Both the position numbers and the translations under genes were made by a program. A stretch of 64,000 bases of DNA from an uncultured archaeon. Its GTDB lineage: Archaea > Thermoproteota > Bathyarchaeia > 40CM-2-53-6 > CALIRQ01. Shown here in pieces: positions 3,310 to 63,581 of the stretch (its first letter is position 1; every line of letters starts with the position of its first letter). Location of the stretch: the NCBI GenBank assembly GCA_938042195.1, contig CALIRQ010000009.1:72262-136261 (forward strand). The letters run 5' to 3'. The notes under the pieces were generated by a model, which was not told the DNA's origin, searched no databases, and worked only from the letters and a program-made list of their open reading frames with translations.

Positions 3310-4152
3310 TTAACGTTGTGAAGCAAATTCCCCACCCCTCCTTATGCCATATTTGACAAATAGGTTTATCGCGAGCACGAGGAGCATGAGGATCAGGGCG
3401 GCCCCCCAAGCCTTCCCATGCCAATCGGCATAGGGAGATATAGCGTATATATAAATCATCAATGGTATTGCTGAAACCGGATGAAGGATGTCGGAGGCGA
3501 ACTTATTGCTGCCGAAGGCCGTGAAGAGGAGCGGGGCTGTTTCCCCCATCACCCTCGCCAAGATCAACAGGGTTCCGGAGGTTATGGATGGAGTCGCCGC
3601 GCCCAAAACTATGTGGATTATTACCCGCCATTTTGGGGCCCCCAAGGCTAAGCCCGCCATCCTCAAATCCAATGGGACGAGTTTAAGGGCCTCCCCGAAG
3701 ATCCTCACCATATTCGGGATGGCGAGTATGCTCAGCGCCATCGCCCCGGCCAAGGCCGAGAATCCATGCCTCAGGACCACGAAGGAGTAGACGAATACGC
3801 CAGCCACTATGCTTGGGGTTCCCGTGAAGGCGTCGTTTACAACCTCTAGAACCTCACCCAACCTTCTATCGCGATATTCCGCCAAGTATATGGCGATCAT
3901 CAAGGATGTCGGGACGCTGATCGCCATAGTAAGGGCCGCGAGGATAATCGAACCCTGTATCGCGTGCGCTATGCCGCCCCCGGCCTCGCCGGGGGGCTTT
4001 GGGAGGGAAGTTAGGAAGGCGGCATCGATTGATCGAATGCCGTTCATCGCCGTGGTCAGGATTATGTGGATCAACGGAAAGGCCACTATAGCCACCGATG
4101 ATGCCGAGAAGACCACCAATAGCCAGTCCTTTACCTCACGGACCTTTGCCAT
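3310..4152 (-). CDS. pstA: Phosphate ABC transporter permease PstA
   Basis: 280 aa polytopic membrane protein with the ABC permease EAA-like region (RVMGETAPLLFTA), downstream of pstC and pstS. Confidence 0.9.
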   Translation of the reverse strand: MAKVREVKDWLLVVFSASSVAIVAFPLIHIILTTAMNGIRSIDAAFLTSLPKPPGEAGGGIAHAIQGSIILAALTMAISVPTSLMIAIYLAEYRDRRLGEVLEVVNDAFTGTPSIVAGVFVYSFVVLRHGFSALAGAMALSILAIPNMVRIFGEALKLVPLDLRMAGLALGAPKWRVIIHIVLGAATPSITSGTLLILARVMGETAPLLFTAFGSNKFASDILHPVSAIPLMIYIYAISPYADWHGKAWGAALILMLLVLAINLFVKYGIRRGGEFASQR

Positions 4153-5135
4153 TTCATCACCACCGACCTTCCGGCCAAGTTTATGAGGAGGGAGATGAGG
4201 ATCAGCAGGAGCGCAATGGCAGTCAGAGAGGAGAGGTAGAAGATATCGGTGGCCTCCGCGAACTCATTCGCCAGCACCGAGGCCATCGTATGGGCGGGGC
4301 TGAGGAGGGAGGGTGAGATCGCATATGAGTTCCCTATCACCATCGTGACCGCCATAGTCTCCCCTATGGCCCTCCCATAGCCCAATATGAGGCCGCCGAT
4401 TATGCCGCTCTTTGCATATGGTATGCTCACGTGCCTTATGACCTCATATCTCCTAGCGCCCAATCCATAAGCGGCCTCCTTCAGTTCCCGCGGTACCATG
4501 AGGAGGCAATCCTTCGACACCGTGACGACTATTGGGGTTATCATGAACGATAGCACGATTATGGCTGCGAGCATCGAAAGGCCGCTCGGGCTCCTGCCGG
4601 AGAAGAGCGGCAAGAATGATAGCGGGGCCAGCAGTGTTTGGAGGTAATCCCTAACGAATGGCACTAGGACGAAGATGCCCCATAGGCCTATTATTACGCT
4701 GGGTATGGCGGCTATTAGCTCCACTACGGCCGAGAGTGGCTCCCTGAGGCCCCTTGGGGATATCTCGGAGAGGAATACGGCCACACCGATCCCCAATACC
4801 GCGGCCGCCAGCAAGGCGAAGGTCGAGGAAACTATCGTGCCATAAATGAACGGGAGGGCGCCGTAGACCCCATTGAGCGGATCCCATCTTTGGCCGAGCA
4901 CGAAGGCGACCCCGAGCCTTCCCCAAGTCAGGCTGGAGGCGGAGAATAGCTCGTGGATGAATATGGCCGAGAAGATCAGGAATAGGATTGAAAAGAGGAG
5001 GGTCAGGGATCCGAACTTATCCCTCATCATTTCCGGATCATCGCTATCGTTTCCAAGTTGAGCCTCTGCACCTCTGGCGGGAGAGGCACATAGTATAGGT
5101 CCTTGCAATATTTCTGCCCTTCGGTCACGGCCCAT
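4131..5135 (-). CDS. pstC: Phosphate ABC transporter permease PstC
   Basis: 334 aa membrane protein with GRAIGETMAVTMVIGN, between pstS and pstA. Confidence 0.9.
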   Translation of the reverse strand: MGRDRRAEILQGPILCASPARGAEAQLGNDSDDPEMMRDKFGSLTLLFSILFLIFSAIFIHELFSASSLTWGRLGVAFVLGQRWDPLNGVYGALPFIYGTIVSSTFALLAAAVLGIGVAVFLSEISPRGLREPLSAVVELIAAIPSVIIGLWGIFVLVPFVRDYLQTLLAPLSFLPLFSGRSPSGLSMLAAIIVLSFMITPIVVTVSKDCLLMVPRELKEAAYGLGARRYEVIRHVSIPYAKSGIIGGLILGYGRAIGETMAVTMVIGNSYAISPSLLSPAHTMASVLANEFAEATDIFYLSSLTAIALLLILISLLINLAGRSVVMKWQRSVR

Positions 5136-6157
5136 CTTAAGAAGCCCACCAAGGCTTGGGCCTTATCCTTGTCCATATAAGATAGGTCCTTATAGACCAA
5201 TAGGTAGGTGAAGCTGGATATGGGATAGGATTCCTCCCCCTCCGCGTCGACGATGCTCACTTTATCCCAAGATTCGTCTCCCCTTGGGAGCTTTGGGACG
5301 GCTGCGGAGGCGGCGCTGGCTATTGTGTCGAAGTTCGCATGGACGAACTTCCCCGCCTTGTTCTTGATGAGCGCATAAGGTATATTGTTTTGAAGGGCGT
5401 ATGTGAGCTCCACGTAGCCGATCGAGTATGGCGTTTGCTTGACGATGGCCGTGACCCCCTCGTTACCCTTGGCTTGGACCCCCCTCGCTCCAATAGCCTC
5501 GGGATAATTGAAGACCTTGCCCCTTCCCACGCCCCTCATCCAATCGCCGCTAACGGCCGATAGATAGTCCGTGAATACGAAGGTCGTTCCGCTAGAATCG
5601 GACCTCTTCACAACGACTATTTCCCTATCCGGGAGCGCCATCCCTTCATTTATTGAGGCGATCCTAGGGTCATTCCATTTGGCGATTTTGCCCAAATATA
5701 TGTCGGCCAAAACGCCGCCGCTCAACCTCAGCCTCCCCTCGATCCCCGGGAGATTATAGGCCAAAACTACGGCCCCAATGGTTTCCGGGAGATGCAGGAG
5801 GCCCGGAGCCCTCTTCGCCTCATCTGGCGTTAGGGGCGCGTCCGAAGCCCCGAAATCCACAGTTCTCTCCGATATCTGCTTTATGCCTCCCCCGCTTCCT
5901 ATGCTTTGGTAGTTAATGGCTACCATGCCATTGGTAAAGGCCTCGTATTCTTGGGACCATTTCGCTATGAGAGGGTAGGGGAACGTGGCCCCGGCCCCCA
6001 AGAGGACGATCCTCCTTCCAAGGGTGGGCTCGGTGCCGGTTTGGGTCGTAACCGTTGGTTGAGGTGGTCCGATTGGCCGCTGGAGCGTTAGAGACGCTAC
6101 CGCAATTATTACCAAAGCGAGTATTGCTGCGATTACAAACTTTTTTTGAATGCCCAT
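5027..6157 (-). CDS. pstS: Phosphate-binding protein PstS (substrate-binding lipoprotein)
   Basis: 376 aa with an N-terminal signal/TM segment and AGATFPYPLIAKW...SGGG periplasmic-binding motifs. Confidence 0.9.
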   Translation of the reverse strand: MGIQKKFVIAAILALVIIAVASLTLQRPIGPPQPTVTTQTGTEPTLGRRIVLLGAGATFPYPLIAKWSQEYEAFTNGMVAINYQSIGSGGGIKQISERTVDFGASDAPLTPDEAKRAPGLLHLPETIGAVVLAYNLPGIEGRLRLSGGVLADIYLGKIAKWNDPRIASINEGMALPDREIVVVKRSDSSGTTFVFTDYLSAVSGDWMRGVGRGKVFNYPEAIGARGVQAKGNEGVTAIVKQTPYSIGYVELTYALQNNIPYALIKNKAGKFVHANFDTIASAASAAVPKLPRGDESWDKVSIVDAEGEESYPISSFTYLLVYKDLSYMDKDKAQALVGFLRWAVTEGQKYCKDLYYVPLPPEVQRLNLETIAMIRK

Positions 6158-40647: not shown

Positions 40648-41226
40648 TTGCGAGCGCCGGGGGATGGCGCCTTGAGATGCTTCATCTCGGTTGACTTGGA
40701 GGATAGGGACTTCGTGGAAAGGGTGGGGAGGGTTCAACGCGACCTGCTGGGGATTTGCGGGGGCTTAAAGCTCGTTGAGCCCCAAAACCTCCACATAACC
40801 CTTAGGTTCTTGGGCGAGATCGATGAGCGGATGGCCTATGGGGTCTGCGAAGCGATAGGCGGGATTGAGTTCAACCCCTTCGAGGTGGAGCTGAGGGGCT
40901 TGGGGGCCTTCCCAAAGGACGGCTACGCCAATGTCATATGGATAGGGATCCGAGGGGGTCGAAGGGAGCTGGAGGAGGTATCGGGGAAGATCGAGTCGCG
41001 CTTGAGGGGGCTTGGCATCCCGCCGGATGAAAGGGGCTTCTCGCCGCATTTGACGATAGCGAGGGTGAAATCCCCCGGCTGTAGGGCGAAGTTCAAGGAA
41101 TTTCTCTCCGGCTCGAAGGAGCTGGAGTTCGGGAGGGTGCTCGTAGAATCGATAAGGCTCAAGAGGAGCGAGCTCTCGTCAGAGGGGCCCACGTATTATA
41201 CCCTTTGCGAGGCCCGCGCCAAATGA
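40648..41226 (+). CDS. thpR: RNA 2',3'-cyclic phosphodiesterase (2H phosphoesterase, ThpR/LigT)
   Basis: 192 aa with two HxT/SL motifs (HITLRF, HLTIAR). Confidence 0.85.
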   Translation: MRAPGDGALRCFISVDLEDRDFVERVGRVQRDLLGICGGLKLVEPQNLHITLRFLGEIDERMAYGVCEAIGGIEFNPFEVELRGLGAFPKDGYANVIWIGIRGGRRELEEVSGKIESRLRGLGIPPDERGFSPHLTIARVKSPGCRAKFKEFLSGSKELEFGRVLVESIRLKRSELSSEGPTYYTLCEARAK

Positions 41227-42659
41227 GGGATGTCTCCCCCGTCTTGGAGGAGGTCCTCCACGCCCTCCGCCCGGATGGGGCAGAGAGGAAGAGGATAATG
41301 GGGTTGGCGGAGGAGCTGATGAGGCGATTGGGGGAGGAGGTCCGAAGATCTGGGTTTGACATAGAGGTTAGGCTCGAGGGCTCGGTGGCGAAGGGGACGT
41401 GGATCAAGGGGGAGGCGGATCTGGATATATTCCTCAGGTTCCCGAGGGACTTCGAGAGGGGGGCTTTTCGCAAAATCGCCTTGGAGCTCGGGAAGAGGGC
41501 CCTCTCTGAGCATCAGCCGTACGAGAGGTACTCCGAGCACCCCTATGTGGAGGCGGTGGTGAATGGAGTGGTGGTGGATATCGTCCCCTGTTATCGGGTC
41601 GAGCCCAGGGATTGGCTCAGCTCCACGGATAGGACCCCATACCATACGAAGTATGTGATCGAAAGGCTCGGGGAGAGGGGGAAGGACGAGGTAAGGCTGC
41701 TCAAGAGGTTCTTGAGGGCCAATGGCCTCTACGGGGCCGATGCCAAGGTCAGGGGGTTCAGCGGAATGCTTTGCGAAACCCTGATCCTGAAGTATGGTTC
41801 GTTCGCCTCCCTCCTCGAGGGCGCCGCAGCTTGGGGGAGGCACGAGGTCATAGATGTGGAGGGCCATTATGCGGGTAGGGAGGAGGAGGCTAGAGAGCTC
41901 TTCGGGGAACCCCTTATAGTCATCGACCCGGTCGATGGGGGCAGGAACCTCGCCTCGGCCCTTTCGGAGGAGAACCTTTGGAGGTTCGTTGCCTTGGCTA
42001 GGGCGTTCTTGGAGGAGCCCTCGGCGGATTTCTTCTTCCCAAAGGAGGTGGTCCTCGGCCCAAGCGAGTTGAGGGCGGAGCTCGAAAGGAGGGGGTCCTG
42101 CCTCGTGATTCTAGCCTTTGGAGGGATCGATGCCGTTGTGGACGTCGTTTGGAGTCAGCTGAGGAAGTCGGAGGCAGTCCTCAGGCGAGCGCTCGAGGGG
42201 GAGGGGTTCAAGGTCTACAGAGCATCGGCGTGGACCGATGAGAGATCAATGAGCGCCATCGCATTCGAGTTGGAGGCGGGGGAGTTGCCGCCCTTGGAGC
42301 TCAGGATCGGCCCGCCGGTCCTCCGGAGGGCCGATTCCGAGAGGTTCTTGAGGAAGCATAGGGGCGCCAAGGATACGGTCGGCGAGCCTTGGGTTAGGGG
42401 TGATAGATGGGCCGTGGAGAAGCTGAGGAGGTTCAGGAGGGCTGGGGATGCGCTAGAGGGGTTCCTAGAGGGGGGAGGGGAGGCGTTGGGGATCCCGAAA
42501 ATGGTCGCTGAAGCGATCCGAAGGGGCCATGCCGTATTGATAAACGATCAGGTATCTTCACTCTTGGAGGACAACCAAAAGCTCAGCAAATTCCTAGCCG
42601 AGTTCTTAGGCGGTTGGCCCATGGCACGAGGGGGGATCGGGCCTCGAGCGACGAGGTGA
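41205..42659 (+). CDS. cca: CCA-adding enzyme (archaeal class I tRNA nucleotidyltransferase)
   Basis: 484 aa with GSVAKGTWIKGEADLDIFL (Pol-beta NT motif), matching the archaeal CCA architecture. Confidence 0.9.
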   Translation: MRGPRQMRDVSPVLEEVLHALRPDGAERKRIMGLAEELMRRLGEEVRRSGFDIEVRLEGSVAKGTWIKGEADLDIFLRFPRDFERGAFRKIALELGKRALSEHQPYERYSEHPYVEAVVNGVVVDIVPCYRVEPRDWLSSTDRTPYHTKYVIERLGERGKDEVRLLKRFLRANGLYGADAKVRGFSGMLCETLILKYGSFASLLEGAAAWGRHEVIDVEGHYAGREEEARELFGEPLIVIDPVDGGRNLASALSEENLWRFVALARAFLEEPSADFFFPKEVVLGPSELRAELERRGSCLVILAFGGIDAVVDVVWSQLRKSEAVLRRALEGEGFKVYRASAWTDERSMSAIAFELEAGELPPLELRIGPPVLRRADSERFLRKHRGAKDTVGEPWVRGDRWAVEKLRRFRRAGDALEGFLEGGGEALGIPKMVAEAIRRGHAVLINDQVSSLLEDNQKLSKFLAEFLGGWPMARGGIGPRATR

Positions 42660-43432
42660 GGATCGAGGTACCCCAAGGCCTCTCGTTCGAGCTCCACGGC
42701 CCCTTGCTGTGCTATCCCAAGCCCGATCCCTCTGAGTTCTCGAGAAGGGTTTCGGAGATGAGCCGCTTGGGCGTGAGGGGGCTGATCTTAGGCGGGCCCA
42801 AGGAGATCGGGCGGTTCCGGATCTTGGGGAAGGGGTGCACTAGCTTGGTTATCAAGGCCGAGGCGGCCGAGGGGATGGCGGCCCTCAAGGTGAGAAGGAT
42901 CGATGCCAACAGGCCGAGCATGGCGAGGGAGGCGGAACTGCTGGCGCTTGCAAACCGAGCCGGGATCGGCCCGAGGCTCATGGGGGCCTCGGAGAATTTC
43001 CTACTGATGGAGTTCGTGGAGGGTTACGATATATCGAGTTTATTGGATAGCTCCCTGGAGATGGGCCCCGGCCCGGAGGCGCTGAGGAGCGCCCTGCGGG
43101 CCCTCCTCCTTGACGCGTTCAAGCTGGATTCGATCGGTTTGGATCACGGCGAGCTGAGCAGGGCCGATGGGCACATCATGATAGCTCGGGACGGGAAGCC
43201 CTTCATATTGGATTTCGAATCGGCCAGCGTGAATCGGCGCCCCTCGAACCTCGCATCCCTCGCCCATTACCTCTTCCTATCCCGGCGCTCGGGCGGGCTC
43301 GCCTCAACCCTAGGGCGACCGGATCGAAAGGCCCTAATAGAGGCCCTCCGGGAATACAAAATGGGCCCATCGATCGAGCGCTTTCGGAAGGTCATGAGGA
43401 TCCTCGGCCTCGGCGAAGGAAAAGAAATATAG
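42614..43432 (+). CDS. Small archaeal Ser/Thr protein kinase-like protein (COG2112-like)
   Basis: Gly-loop LGKGCTSLV, a VAIK-like ALKVRR and a catalytic-loop-like LDHGELSRADGHIM. The true start may be the internal Met near 42758. Confidence 0.6.
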   Translation: MAHGTRGDRASSDEVRIEVPQGLSFELHGPLLCYPKPDPSEFSRRVSEMSRLGVRGLILGGPKEIGRFRILGKGCTSLVIKAEAAEGMAALKVRRIDANRPSMAREAELLALANRAGIGPRLMGASENFLLMEFVEGYDISSLLDSSLEMGPGPEALRSALRALLLDAFKLDSIGLDHGELSRADGHIMIARDGKPFILDFESASVNRRPSNLASLAHYLFLSRRSGGLASTLGRPDRKALIEALREYKMGPSIERFRKVMRILGLGEGKEI

Positions 43433-43456
43433 GCCCCTGGATGGCCCTCTAAGGGC

Positions 43457-43591
43457 GGGGCAGTCGTCTAGTTTGGTCCAGGATCCCAGAGGCCATCGGG
43501 GAGCCTGGGGCGCTGGAGACCGCTTCGAGCGGCCGAAGGTCGCGGGTTCAAAATGGCCCGAGCGGCCATGGGAATCCCGTCTGCCCCACCA
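43457..43591 (+). tRNA. tRNA with encoded CCA and two non-canonical introns; tentatively tRNA-Arg(UCG)
   Basis: GGGGCAG pairs with CUGCCCC, followed by A-CCA. U8, A14, G18G19 and A21 are present, plus an AGGUC variable region. The T-arm GCGGG-UUCAAA...CCCGU is interrupted by a 22-nt hairpin insert (AUGGCC-CGAGC-GGCCAU). About 33 nt are inserted between the D-arm and anticodon arm. The candidate anticodon loop is CUUCGAG. Confidence 0.6.
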
Positions 43592-43822
43592 AGGACCCCA
43601 TGGCGATTCGACTCAAGGATCTATGGGATCGTCCGCTCGGGGCTCGAAAACGCCCAGGTAGTGAACTCGGGGAGACATTCGAGGGAATTGGGGGGGGGCG
43701 CTCGAGGGAGCCGGGGCAAGCGAAGCTCATAGAGCTGGAGAGGAATCCATCGCCCAGCCATAGCCGGAGAAGCCCATGCGCCCATGAGCTCCGAAGTTCC
43801 GATCCTCGGAGAACAACACCAT

Positions 43823-45301
43823 TCAAGGGAGGCGCGACCCCCTCTCTCGATGCGGCGGAAGGATCCTCGCAGATCCCCCGAAGATCGCCTTGAACTCATC
43901 CCTTAGGAGCTCCGGCAGGGCGCGCCCCATATCCCTCGCGATCCCCCCCAAGGCCTTGCTCACTCCAGTCGAGTATTGAATCGCTCGCTTGGGGCGGCTG
44001 GCAATCCGCTCCGGGAGGCCGATCTCCTTGGCCAGCGCCCTGAGCAACACCTTTCTCTCCCCTCTCTCGGCATCGAGGAGGAGGCGAATGGGAAGGGAGA
44101 GGGCGAAGTCCACTATCCCGGTATCGGCGAATGGGATCCTGAGCTCCACTGATGACGCGGAGCTTATCTTATCATCGCGCTCGAAGTTCACCAGATGTGA
44201 GTTCCTTATATCCTTCAATAGCAACTCCCTAGCCAGCCGAGGGCCGCCGGAGCGATGGGCCCTCAGGGCCTTCATATAGCCCCCGAAGCATTCGTCCGCC
44301 CCCTGGCCCGTCAGCGCGACGGCGAAGCCCAAGGCCGACGCTTCCTCAAGAACCCAATAAAGCGGGATCCCGATAGCAACCTTCATCGGATCCGAATCCT
44401 CAATCAGCCAAAGGATCTTCCTCAGATCCCCCCTAACGTCCTCCGGCCCCTTCTCGACCTGAATGAGTTCGATTCCGATCTCCCCCGCGGCCCATTTCGC
44501 GAACTCGAGCTCCCCGCTGCCCCTCAGCGAGGCCGAGATCAATAGGACCTCCTTCCCAATCGCGCTCGCCATCCGGGCTATTATGGAGCTATCGAGGCCC
44601 CCCGAGAAAGCTATCGCAATGCGATCCGCATCGCGCAACCTGATCCTCAAGGAGTTCTCCATCAATTCCCCCAAGCGCGCCTTCGCATCCTCGATTCCCA
44701 GCCGCTCGATCCTCCGGCGCCCGATCCCCCGGGCCCTGCGGAACCTAGGCTCATCGCCCTCGACCACGCAAATCGATCCGGGCGGGAATGATTCGGCATC
44801 GGGTATGCCAATGGCCCAAAGCGCCTTGGCCTCGGAGGCGGCCGCGAAGACGCCCTCCCCCTTGCCGAAGTATAGGGGCTTCAACCCCAGCGGGTCCCTC
44901 CCCAGGATCAAGGAGTCCCCGCATAGCGCGGCGAACGCATAGGCCCCCTCGGCTTCGGCCAAGAGGCGTTCGAAGCGCTCCAATCCCCCGCCCCCCAAGA
45001 GCCCTCCAATGCCGCTTCGGCATTCGGGCGAGAAGACCCTCCCATCGAATGCGATCGGATCGCCCCCGGCCAAGATGGGCTGCGGCGAATCCCCCGGGAG
45101 GAGCCGCTTGAAATTATGCCCTATGGCCCTTGGGCCAATCCCCCTCAAATCCCAAGGATCCGCTGGGAAGATGACCCCGCTCGGATCGGCGATTCCGTAC
45201 CCGGTCCCTCGGTGATCTAAGGCCTTCAGCATCCTCGCCAAGGGGTTAGAAATGTCCCCCGATCCGGAGCTGGATATGGCGATGACCGAGCCCATTCCCA
45301 A
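43823..45301 (-). CDS. asnB: Asparagine synthetase B-like (class-II amidotransferase domain + PP-loop synthetase domain)
   Basis: 492 aa with the PP-loop AFSGGLDSS. The N-terminus is MGMGSVIA, without the catalytic Cys2. Confidence 0.8.
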   Translation of the reverse strand: MGMGSVIAISSSGSGDISNPLARMLKALDHRGTGYGIADPSGVIFPADPWDLRGIGPRAIGHNFKRLLPGDSPQPILAGGDPIAFDGRVFSPECRSGIGGLLGGGGLERFERLLAEAEGAYAFAALCGDSLILGRDPLGLKPLYFGKGEGVFAAASEAKALWAIGIPDAESFPPGSICVVEGDEPRFRRARGIGRRRIERLGIEDAKARLGELMENSLRIRLRDADRIAIAFSGGLDSSIIARMASAIGKEVLLISASLRGSGELEFAKWAAGEIGIELIQVEKGPEDVRGDLRKILWLIEDSDPMKVAIGIPLYWVLEEASALGFAVALTGQGADECFGGYMKALRAHRSGGPRLARELLLKDIRNSHLVNFERDDKISSASSVELRIPFADTGIVDFALSLPIRLLLDAERGERKVLLRALAKEIGLPERIASRPKRAIQYSTGVSKALGGIARDMGRALPELLRDEFKAIFGGSARILPPHRERGSRLP

Positions 45302-60215: not shown

Positions 60216-60307
60216 TGCGGCCGCCGGGATTCGAACCCGGGTCACTGGCGCTCCGCCCGATCAAAGTTGGCAGGCCAGCGTCTTGGACCAGGCTGGACTA
60301 CGGCCGC
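60216..60307 (-). tRNA. tRNA-Gly(GCC) with a 17-18 nt intron adjacent to the anticodon loop
   Basis: Reverse complement: GCGGCCG-UA-GUCC...AGAC-G-CUGGC-CUGCCA[intron ACUUUGAUCGGGCGGAGC]-GCCAG-UGAC-CCGGG-UUCGAAU-CCCGG-CGGCCGC-A. CCA is not encoded. Confidence 0.85.
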
Positions 60308-63503: not shown

Positions 63504-63581
63504 TGGTGGACCGGCGGGGATTTGAACCCCGGACCTTCCGCATGCCAAGCGGACGATCATACCAGGCTGATCTACCGGCCC
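63504..63581 (-). tRNA. tRNA-Ala(GGC), intronless, CCA encoded
   Basis: Reverse complement: GGGCCGG-UA-GAUC-AGCCUGGUAU-GAUC-G-UCCGC-UUGGCAU-GCGGA-AGGUC-CGGGG-UUCAAAU-CCCCG-CCGGUCC-A-CCA, with the G3:U70 Ala identity pair. Confidence 0.9.

Follow-up and report, generated by a model that had tools for sequence, protein, structure and literature searches.

The 135 nt at positions 43457-43591 (forward strand) of the window, as we call the whole 64,000-nt stretch of DNA that was analysed, very probably form a functional Bathyarchaeia gene for tRNA-Pro(GGG) with three short introns, placed at 30/31, 45/46 and 59/60; from the sequence comparisons described below we put the probability of this reading at about 90%. 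The Bathyarchaeia are a little-studied group, here home to an already known type of gene. Removal of 14 + 20 + 22 nt would leave a canonical 79-nt class-I cloverleaf with an encoded CCA end. The proposed parts of the gene are as follows.

43457..43489, + strand: exon 1, tRNA positions 1-30 (acceptor 5' strand GGGGCAG, U8, D-arm GUCU-AGUUUGGUCCA-GGAU, C26, anticodon-stem CCAG)
43490..43503, + strand: intron 1, 14 nt, AGGCCAUCGGGGAG, position 30/31, relaxed bulge-helix-bulge (BHB)
43504..43518, + strand: exon 2, tRNA positions 31-45 (C31, loop CUGGGGC, stem 3' strand GCUGG, A44 G45)
43507-43509, + strand: anticodon GGG, in exon 2, flanked by U33 and G37
43519..43538, + strand: intron 2, 20 nt, ACCGCUUCGAGCGGCCGAAG, position 45/46, relaxed BHB
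43539..43552, + strand: exon 3, tRNA positions 46-59 (variable-loop GUC, T-stem 5' strand GCGGG, T-loop UUCAAA)
43553..43574, + strand: intron 3, 22 nt, AUGGCCCGAGCGGCCAUGGGAA, position 59/60, strict hBHBh'
43575..43591, + strand: exon 4, tRNA positions 60-76 (U60, T-stem 3' strand CCCGU, acceptor CUGCCCC, discriminator A73, genomic CCA)

With carets for the proposed cut sites, the full parse is GGGGCAG UC GUCU AGUUUGGUCCA GGAU C CCAG^AGGCCAUCGGGGAG^C CUGGGGC GCUGG AG^ACCGCUUCGAGCGGCCGAAG^GUC GCGGG UUCAAA^AUGGCCCGAGCGGCCAUGGGAA^U CCCGU CUGCCCC A CCA. The exon junctions of this model read ...CCCAG^CCUGGGG..., ...GCUGGAG^GUCGCGGG... and ...UUCAAA^UCCCGU..., corresponding to G30-C31, G45-G46 and A59-U60. 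An earlier note on this DNA, made from the sequence alone, had described a tRNA-like gene with a perfect terminal helix of 7 bp (GGGGCAG, 43457-43463, with CTGCCCC, 43581-43587) followed by A-CCA, and with U8, A14, G18G19, A21, AGGTC and GCGGG-TTCAAA; all of these elements were found where it had placed them. The spliced product was identified by ARAGORN as tRNA-Pro(GGG) of 79 nt, and the call survived -ps115 (115% threshold). The spliced cloverleaf is free of defects and has U8, A14, G15-C48, G18G19, A21, U33, G37, G53-C61, U54U55C56, A58, A73 and CCA. Its anticodon stem CCAGC/GCUGG is perfect (5 bp), the anticodon loop is CUGGGGC, the variable loop AGGUC has 5 nt and the T-loop is UUCAAAU. 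The gene also contains G1-C72, G2-C71, G3-C70, A73, G35 and G36, which we take to agree with archaeal tRNA-Pro. The same anticodon arm, CCAGC-CUGGGGC-GCUGG, with a 7-nt loop, U33, a purine at 37 and a 5-bp stem, is present in 10/10 orthologs.

The earlier note had suggested tRNA finders as a check, and the outcome was divided. On the unspliced gene ARAGORN was silent, both by default and with -i; the spliced form it called as tRNA-Pro(GGG). Nor was a tRNA reported at 43457-43591 by Rfam cmscan (gathering and E-value thresholds; permissive search on 43300-43750), and ARAGORN at -ps80 gave only a spurious minus-strand match on the locus. Over the whole window, default ARAGORN found only a tRNA-Ala(GGC) gene at 63504-63581. 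Rfam found the tRNA-Ala(GGC) gene and, in addition, an intron-containing tRNA at 60216-60307 that had been missed by default ARAGORN. Examined by eye, the latter gene (minus strand) encodes tRNA-Gly(GCC) and has a canonical 37/38 intron of ~17 nt, with helix H CUGC/GCGG and 3' bulge AG^C. To look for other tRNAs rich in inserts, the window was crudely scanned for a T-arm motif together with 7-bp termini; the matches were mostly noise, and no clear candidate was added to the three known genes.

Orthologs were searched for in close relatives in two ways. With the neighbouring asparagine-synthase-like protein as query, two Bathyarchaeia/Bathyarchaeota MAG contigs were retrieved (74% and 86% identity), both carrying the gene, and an exon-anchored pattern with free gaps detected two further gene copies in metagenomes. 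The exons were 100% identical to those of the window in four further genomes or metagenome contigs of Bathyarchaeia, and in each case the gene was located directly behind the same RIO-like kinase ORF. When the five sequences were aligned, 15 of the 58 intron columns were variable, versus 0 of the 79 exon columns (Fisher P ~8e-7). Identity of the exons was thus perfect although the flanking proteins were only 74-86% identical. One of these sequences, L003, has the bulge AA^C; here only the cuts CCAG^...AA^C and UUCAAA^...AG^U yield the conserved product, and therefore the junctions are fixed at 30/31 and 59/60. Recurrence with identical exons in close relatives, and in recognisable form in distant ones, points to more than chance.

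More distant orthologs were reached through homologs of the kinase, which led to syntenic contigs. Relative to the window, identity of the kinase was 52% in L006 and ~45% in L010, L014 and L015. In the tRNA-Pro(GGG) genes of these four CCAGCCUGGGG is contiguous and the variable loop has 5 nt, which is direct proof that exons 1 and 2, and likewise exons 2 and 3, belong together. All four contain a canonical 37/38 intron and a 59/60 intron, they are without the 45/46 intron, and their exons 1 and 2 are contiguous at 30/31; absence of the 30/31 intron was noted specifically for L006 and L010. An intron at 37/38 is present in L006, L008, L010, L014 and L015 and is lacking from the window gene. The 59/60 intron was kept in the distant orthologs, with compensatory changes in its helices. 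Because it is retained where the kinase is only ~45-52% identical, it does not have the look of an intron gained recently in one lineage. When the window gene was aligned in a gap-tolerant manner to the mature tRNAs of L006 and L010, gaps of exactly 14, 20 and 22 nt opened at the proposed sites. No tRNA-Pro was found beside the kinase homologs in L007, L011, L012, L013 and L016, where synteny was lost.

These comparisons bear on the isotype. The earlier note had tentatively read the anticodon as UCG, which would make the gene a tRNA-Arg(UCG) with two introns, namely a 22-nt intron in the T-loop and a single insert of ~33 nt between the D-arm and the anticodon arm GACCG-CUUCGAG-CGGCC. Both the pair CCCAG...CTGGG and the hairpin GACCG-CTTCGAG-CGGCC on which it drew can be read in the sequence. 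In a brute-force approach, ~100,000 two-deletion constructs were enumerated and scored with ARAGORN. Solutions for Arg(UCG) as well as for Pro(GGG) passed, up to -ps115; a construct with the GACCG-CUUCGAG-CGGCC arm was accepted as tRNA-Arg(TCG) to that same level. However, the passing Arg construct needs an anticodon stem of 6 bp that includes an A.C mismatch, and the construct taken literally from the earlier description was rejected. Since Arg(UCG) and Pro(GGG) constructs both pass, a gene finder alone cannot discriminate between them, whereas the comparative data do. Among orthologs with identical exons the supposed Arg loop reads CUUCGAG, CCUCGAG (U33 replaced by C), CCUCAAG (position 36 changed) or, in L003, the 6-nt CUUCGG, so that 3/7 of its positions vary or are deleted. 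In the outgroup orthologs this hairpin is wholly absent and the GGG anticodon arm is there. Beside invariant exons, a genuine anticodon loop would keep U33, position 36 and its length, and the tRNA-Arg(UCG) model is therefore refuted by the comparative data; we give it next to no credence. The anticodon is accordingly GGG (Pro), and the introns number three (30/31, 45/46, 59/60) rather than two. What had appeared as one insert of ~33 nt is the introns at 30/31 and 45/46 placed around the true arm CCAG^C-CUGGGGC-GCUGG, and GACCG-CUUCGAG-CGGCC is the inner hairpin of intron 2, the loop of which is not conserved.

In a close relative, L004, a further tRNA-like sequence was noticed at 5060-5178 (+), GGGCCCG...CGGGCCC-G-CCA, with normal D and T arms and ~45 extra nt between them. 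Deletion enumeration gave ambiguous isotypes for it.

The geometry of the BHB motifs was calibrated on the canonical 37/38 introns of the orthologs L006 and L010. In these, helix H joins exon bases 32-35 to four bases near the 3' end of the intron, with just the final two intron bases lying beyond them; a bulge of 3 nt comes after either strand of H and is cleaved between its second and third bases. Intron 3 has the complete arrangement. Its outer helix h is the T-stem GCGGG/CCCGU (5 bp), H is UUCA/UGGG (4/4 pairs) with bulges AA^A and AA^U, and UGGCC/GGCCA forms the inner helix h' (5 bp). It was the top-scoring BHB of the region in a pattern scan. Over 8 distinct orthologs 94.6% of the cells were paired and 6 pairs were altered on both sides; the covariation score was reached by 0/500 shuffles, and slid controls were only 35-59% paired. 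The 22-nt T-loop intron described in the earlier note, with CCCGT downstream of an insert containing the hairpin ATGGCC-CGAGC-GGCCAT, was thus borne out, both in its sequence elements and by a strict hBHBh' at 59/60.

The other two introns are bounded by relaxed motifs. Intron 1 has H UCCC/GGGG (4/4 pairs) with AG^A and AG^C as its bulges and an inner helix of 1-2 bp, and is without an outer helix; its loop is small and variable, ranging from 6 to 11 nt among the orthologs, and GGGG and the bulges are constant. In intron 2, H is CUGG/CCGA (3/4 pairs, with one C.A mismatch), the bulges are AG^A and AG^G, the outer helix is 1 bp, and an inner hairpin CCGC-UUCGA-GCGG contributes 4-5 bp. The 3' strand of this H is CCGA, CCAA or CCAG in the orthologs, and pairing is kept or improved: U41.G is replaced by U41-A among orthologs, and L008 has C40-G instead of C40.A. 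For the inner helix, the window has CCGC/GCGG and L008 has CCUAG/CUAGG. Taken over 10 orthologs, all of the proposed introns (27/27) share the H and bulge geometry, with 3-4 of the 4 H pairs formed, and each of the 10 spliced products was called as tRNA-Pro(GGG) by ARAGORN. The expectation that BHB motifs would be present at the junctions was thereby confirmed for H and both bulges in all three introns, but in strict form only at 59/60, the motifs at 30/31 and 45/46 being relaxed. The broader claim of a tRNA gene with several non-canonical introns is upheld by the ortholog comparison and by BHB geometry.

The number of introns could be lower if the 20-nt segment at 45/46 were not removed at all. 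The tRNA-Pro(GGG) would then have introns at 30/31 and 59/60 only and would keep the segment as a long, class-II-like variable arm. The segment does hold a conserved hairpin of 4-5 bp, and constructs of 99-100 nt that retain it were likewise called as tRNA-Pro(GGG) at -ps115. Long variable arms are, however, a property of Leu, Ser and bacterial Tyr tRNAs, not of tRNA-Pro. In L006, L010, L014 and L015 the variable loop is of the ordinary 5-nt size, so an extra arm is not common to the orthologs. The segment itself shows BHB geometry: the hairpin is followed by 6 more bases, of which 4 (CCGA, CCAA or CCAG) are complementary to positions 40-43 as the H of a BHB requires, and in L008 this complementarity is perfect. 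At 45/46 the bulge sequences (AG^A and AG^G) correspond to the ones in intron 1. Retention of the segment as a variable arm is, on this evidence, very unlikely, and we treat it as intron 2 of a three-intron gene.

The pattern scan also showed how little a relaxed motif means by itself in this G+C-rich sequence. It returned 890 relaxed BHB candidates in 135 nt, among which only the T-loop intron stands out alone. Relaxed matches are very common by chance here; alone they are weak evidence and cannot place introns 1 and 2. The predicted minimum of the precursor (MFE fold, -70.1 kcal/mol, nearest-neighbour) differs from the three-BHB structure (-36.5 kcal/mol), although MFE folding is uninformative for motifs that are recognised by a protein. 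Because chance relaxed BHBs are abundant and the three-BHB fold is far from the MFE, introns 1 and 2 rest mainly on the comparative evidence.

A 9-nt string, CGAGCGGCC, was found to be common to introns 2 (43526-43534) and 3 (43559-43567); it is not common to the two introns in L001 or L003. It could be due to chance in G+C-rich sequence or to a common origin of the introns by duplication or transposition.

An ortholog with more inserts was found at 3316-3486 (+) of L008, with an identical copy in L009. These are two independent Bathyarchaeia MAG assemblies, GCA_038852745.1 and GCA_038870415.1. The gene occupies 171 nt for a 76-nt product and contains the following inserts.

20b/21: 16 nt, H UGGU/GCCA, 4/4 pairs
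30/31: 18 nt, H UCCC/GGGG, 4/4 pairs
37/38: 18 nt, H CUGG/ACAG, 3/4 pairs
45/46: 22 nt, H CUGG/CCAG, 4/4 pairs
59/60: 21 nt, H UUCA/UGAA, 4/4 pairs

The spliced product was called as tRNA-Pro(GGG) by ARAGORN, and gap-tolerant alignment likewise needed five gaps. The L008/L009 gene thus appears to carry five BHB-bounded introns. Its 37/38 intron (~3394-3401) holds CCAGGAUC, and the same 8 bases are found in the spliced D-arm/position-26 segment CCAGGAUCCCAG of that gene. This repeat may be either a chance match or a trace of how the 37/38 intron arose.

Upstream of the window gene the following features were located.

40648-41226: LigT-like 2'-5' RNA ligase/phosphoesterase
41205-42659: CCA-adding enzyme
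42614-43432: RIO-like kinase, with the tRNA-Pro(GGG) gene next
43421..43432, + strand: A/T-rich TATA-like box, AAAGAAATATAG, overlapping the kinase stop codon and preceding the mature 5' end by ~25-35 nt

The string GAAAGAAATATAGG is conserved upstream of the orthologs in L001-L005. From archaeal promoters generally, we presume that the TATA-like box serves as a promoter. The succession of LigT-like gene, CCA-adding enzyme, kinase and tRNA-Pro(GGG) (40648-43591 in the window) is conserved, being found also in L005, L006, L008, L010, L014 and L015, and tRNA-processing genes therefore adjoin a heavily processed tRNA gene. On the downstream side, the distance from the tRNA to the asparagine-synthase-like gene is filled by ~1.5-2 kb of coding sequence in the relatives (L002 7500-9500, L001 5700-7150) versus ~230 nt in the window. 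At 43600-43893 (+) the window has an ORF of 97 aa that looks like a deletion remnant; its last residues, …AKLIELERNP, match those at the C-terminus of the relatives' longer gene.

Rejection of the unspliced sequence by standard tRNA finders would also be expected of a decayed, non-functional pseudogene or a tRNA-derived element, such as the remnant of an integration site, from which the inserts are never removed. Such an element would hardly keep perfectly conserved exons beside variable inserts across genomes whose flanking proteins are 74-86% identical. Compensatory changes maintain the BHB helices, the place behind the kinase gene is conserved together with the upstream TATA-like box, and the spliced cloverleaf is without defects. 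We consider decay highly improbable and retain the interpretation as a functional three-intron gene.

For this gene a route of maturation can be proposed. The precursor would be transcribed from the TATA-like box at ~43421-43432 and the ends of the transcript trimmed. EndA would then cut the precursor at the three BHB motifs, that is in six bulges, probably in a broad-specificity form as in other TACK archaea, and the exons would be joined by RtcB-type ligation to give a tRNA reading CCC/CCU. Cleavage of relaxed BHBs at non-canonical positions is ascribed to endonucleases of the (alpha-beta)2 or epsilon2 type, which are known chiefly from TACK archaea (PMC4033280, PMC8450103, PMC7714728), and the TACK superphylum, in which the (alpha-beta)2 enzymes mainly occur, includes Bathyarchaeota (PMC7714728). 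The H helices of introns 1 and 2 occupy positions 25-28 and 40-43, on opposite strands of what is to become the anticodon stem. As predicted structures, the BHBs of these two introns are compatible with each other and incompatible with the anticodon stem, which could thus form only after both introns have been removed.

The literature describes archaeal tRNA genes in which as many as three BHB introns occupy non-canonical positions, and it accepts relaxed forms of the motif for this family (PMC4033280, PMC8450103, PMC7714728). The closest parallel is provided by the multi-intron tRNA genes of Thermoproteales (Pyrobaculum, Thermofilum, Caldivirga; Sugahara et al. 2007/2008, as presented in PMC4033280 and PMC8450103). 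As far as those accounts go, the window gene resembles them in its short introns (13-22 nt), in their location at non-canonical sites of the D, anticodon, variable and T regions, in strict or relaxed BHB bounds, in up to three introns per gene, and in being missed by ordinary finders. It differs from the genes covered there in that its host belongs to the Bathyarchaeia and its 59/60 intron is retained across deeply diverged relatives; moreover, one Bathyarchaeia ortholog appears to exceed the maximum of three introns given in those accounts. The H, bulge and cut geometry of the window introns is the same as that of the canonical archaeal 37/38 hBHBh' intron, of which the tRNA-Gly(GCC) of the window (60216-60307) gives another example, but none of the three is located at 37/38. 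The three-intron nuclear tRNA genes of Cyanidioschyzon merolae (PMC3728597, PMC9602550) are alike in architecture only; they belong to a red-algal nucleus, are served by a different endonuclease complex and stand in a lineage unrelated to that of the window.

The window gene has the tested features of the known family of multi-intron tRNA genes, and its three introns equal the published archaeal maximum. A literature search for Bathyarchaeia tRNA introns and for positions 30/31, 45/46 and 59/60 yielded no specific description. Since the family features are present and the search gave no Bathyarchaeia example, we regard this as a known type of gene newly placed in the Bathyarchaeia. It is rather likely that the Bathyarchaeia are a second, so far undescribed hotspot where tRNA introns accumulate, a process recorded here at the tRNA-Pro(GGG) locus: relatives have two introns (37/38 and 59/60), the window has three, with 37/38 lost, and L008/L009 have five, the 59/60 intron being old and stably inherited rather than a recent insertion.

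Genes of this kind are invisible to Rfam and ARAGORN, and an essential isoacceptor can consequently seem to be missing from Bathyarchaeia genomes; such apparent loss affects estimates of completeness and the inference of codon usage. Multi-intron tRNA genes would not be confined to Thermoproteales, which bears on the co-evolution of tRNA gene structure with endonuclease specificity. If confirmed, the five introns of L008/L009 exceed the published maximum, and the locus presents a series of two, three and five introns. Orthologs of these three kinds at one syntenic locus offer a clean natural case for dating the gain and loss of introns, and with two BHBs on the two strands of one stem, the order of cutting becomes a testable question.
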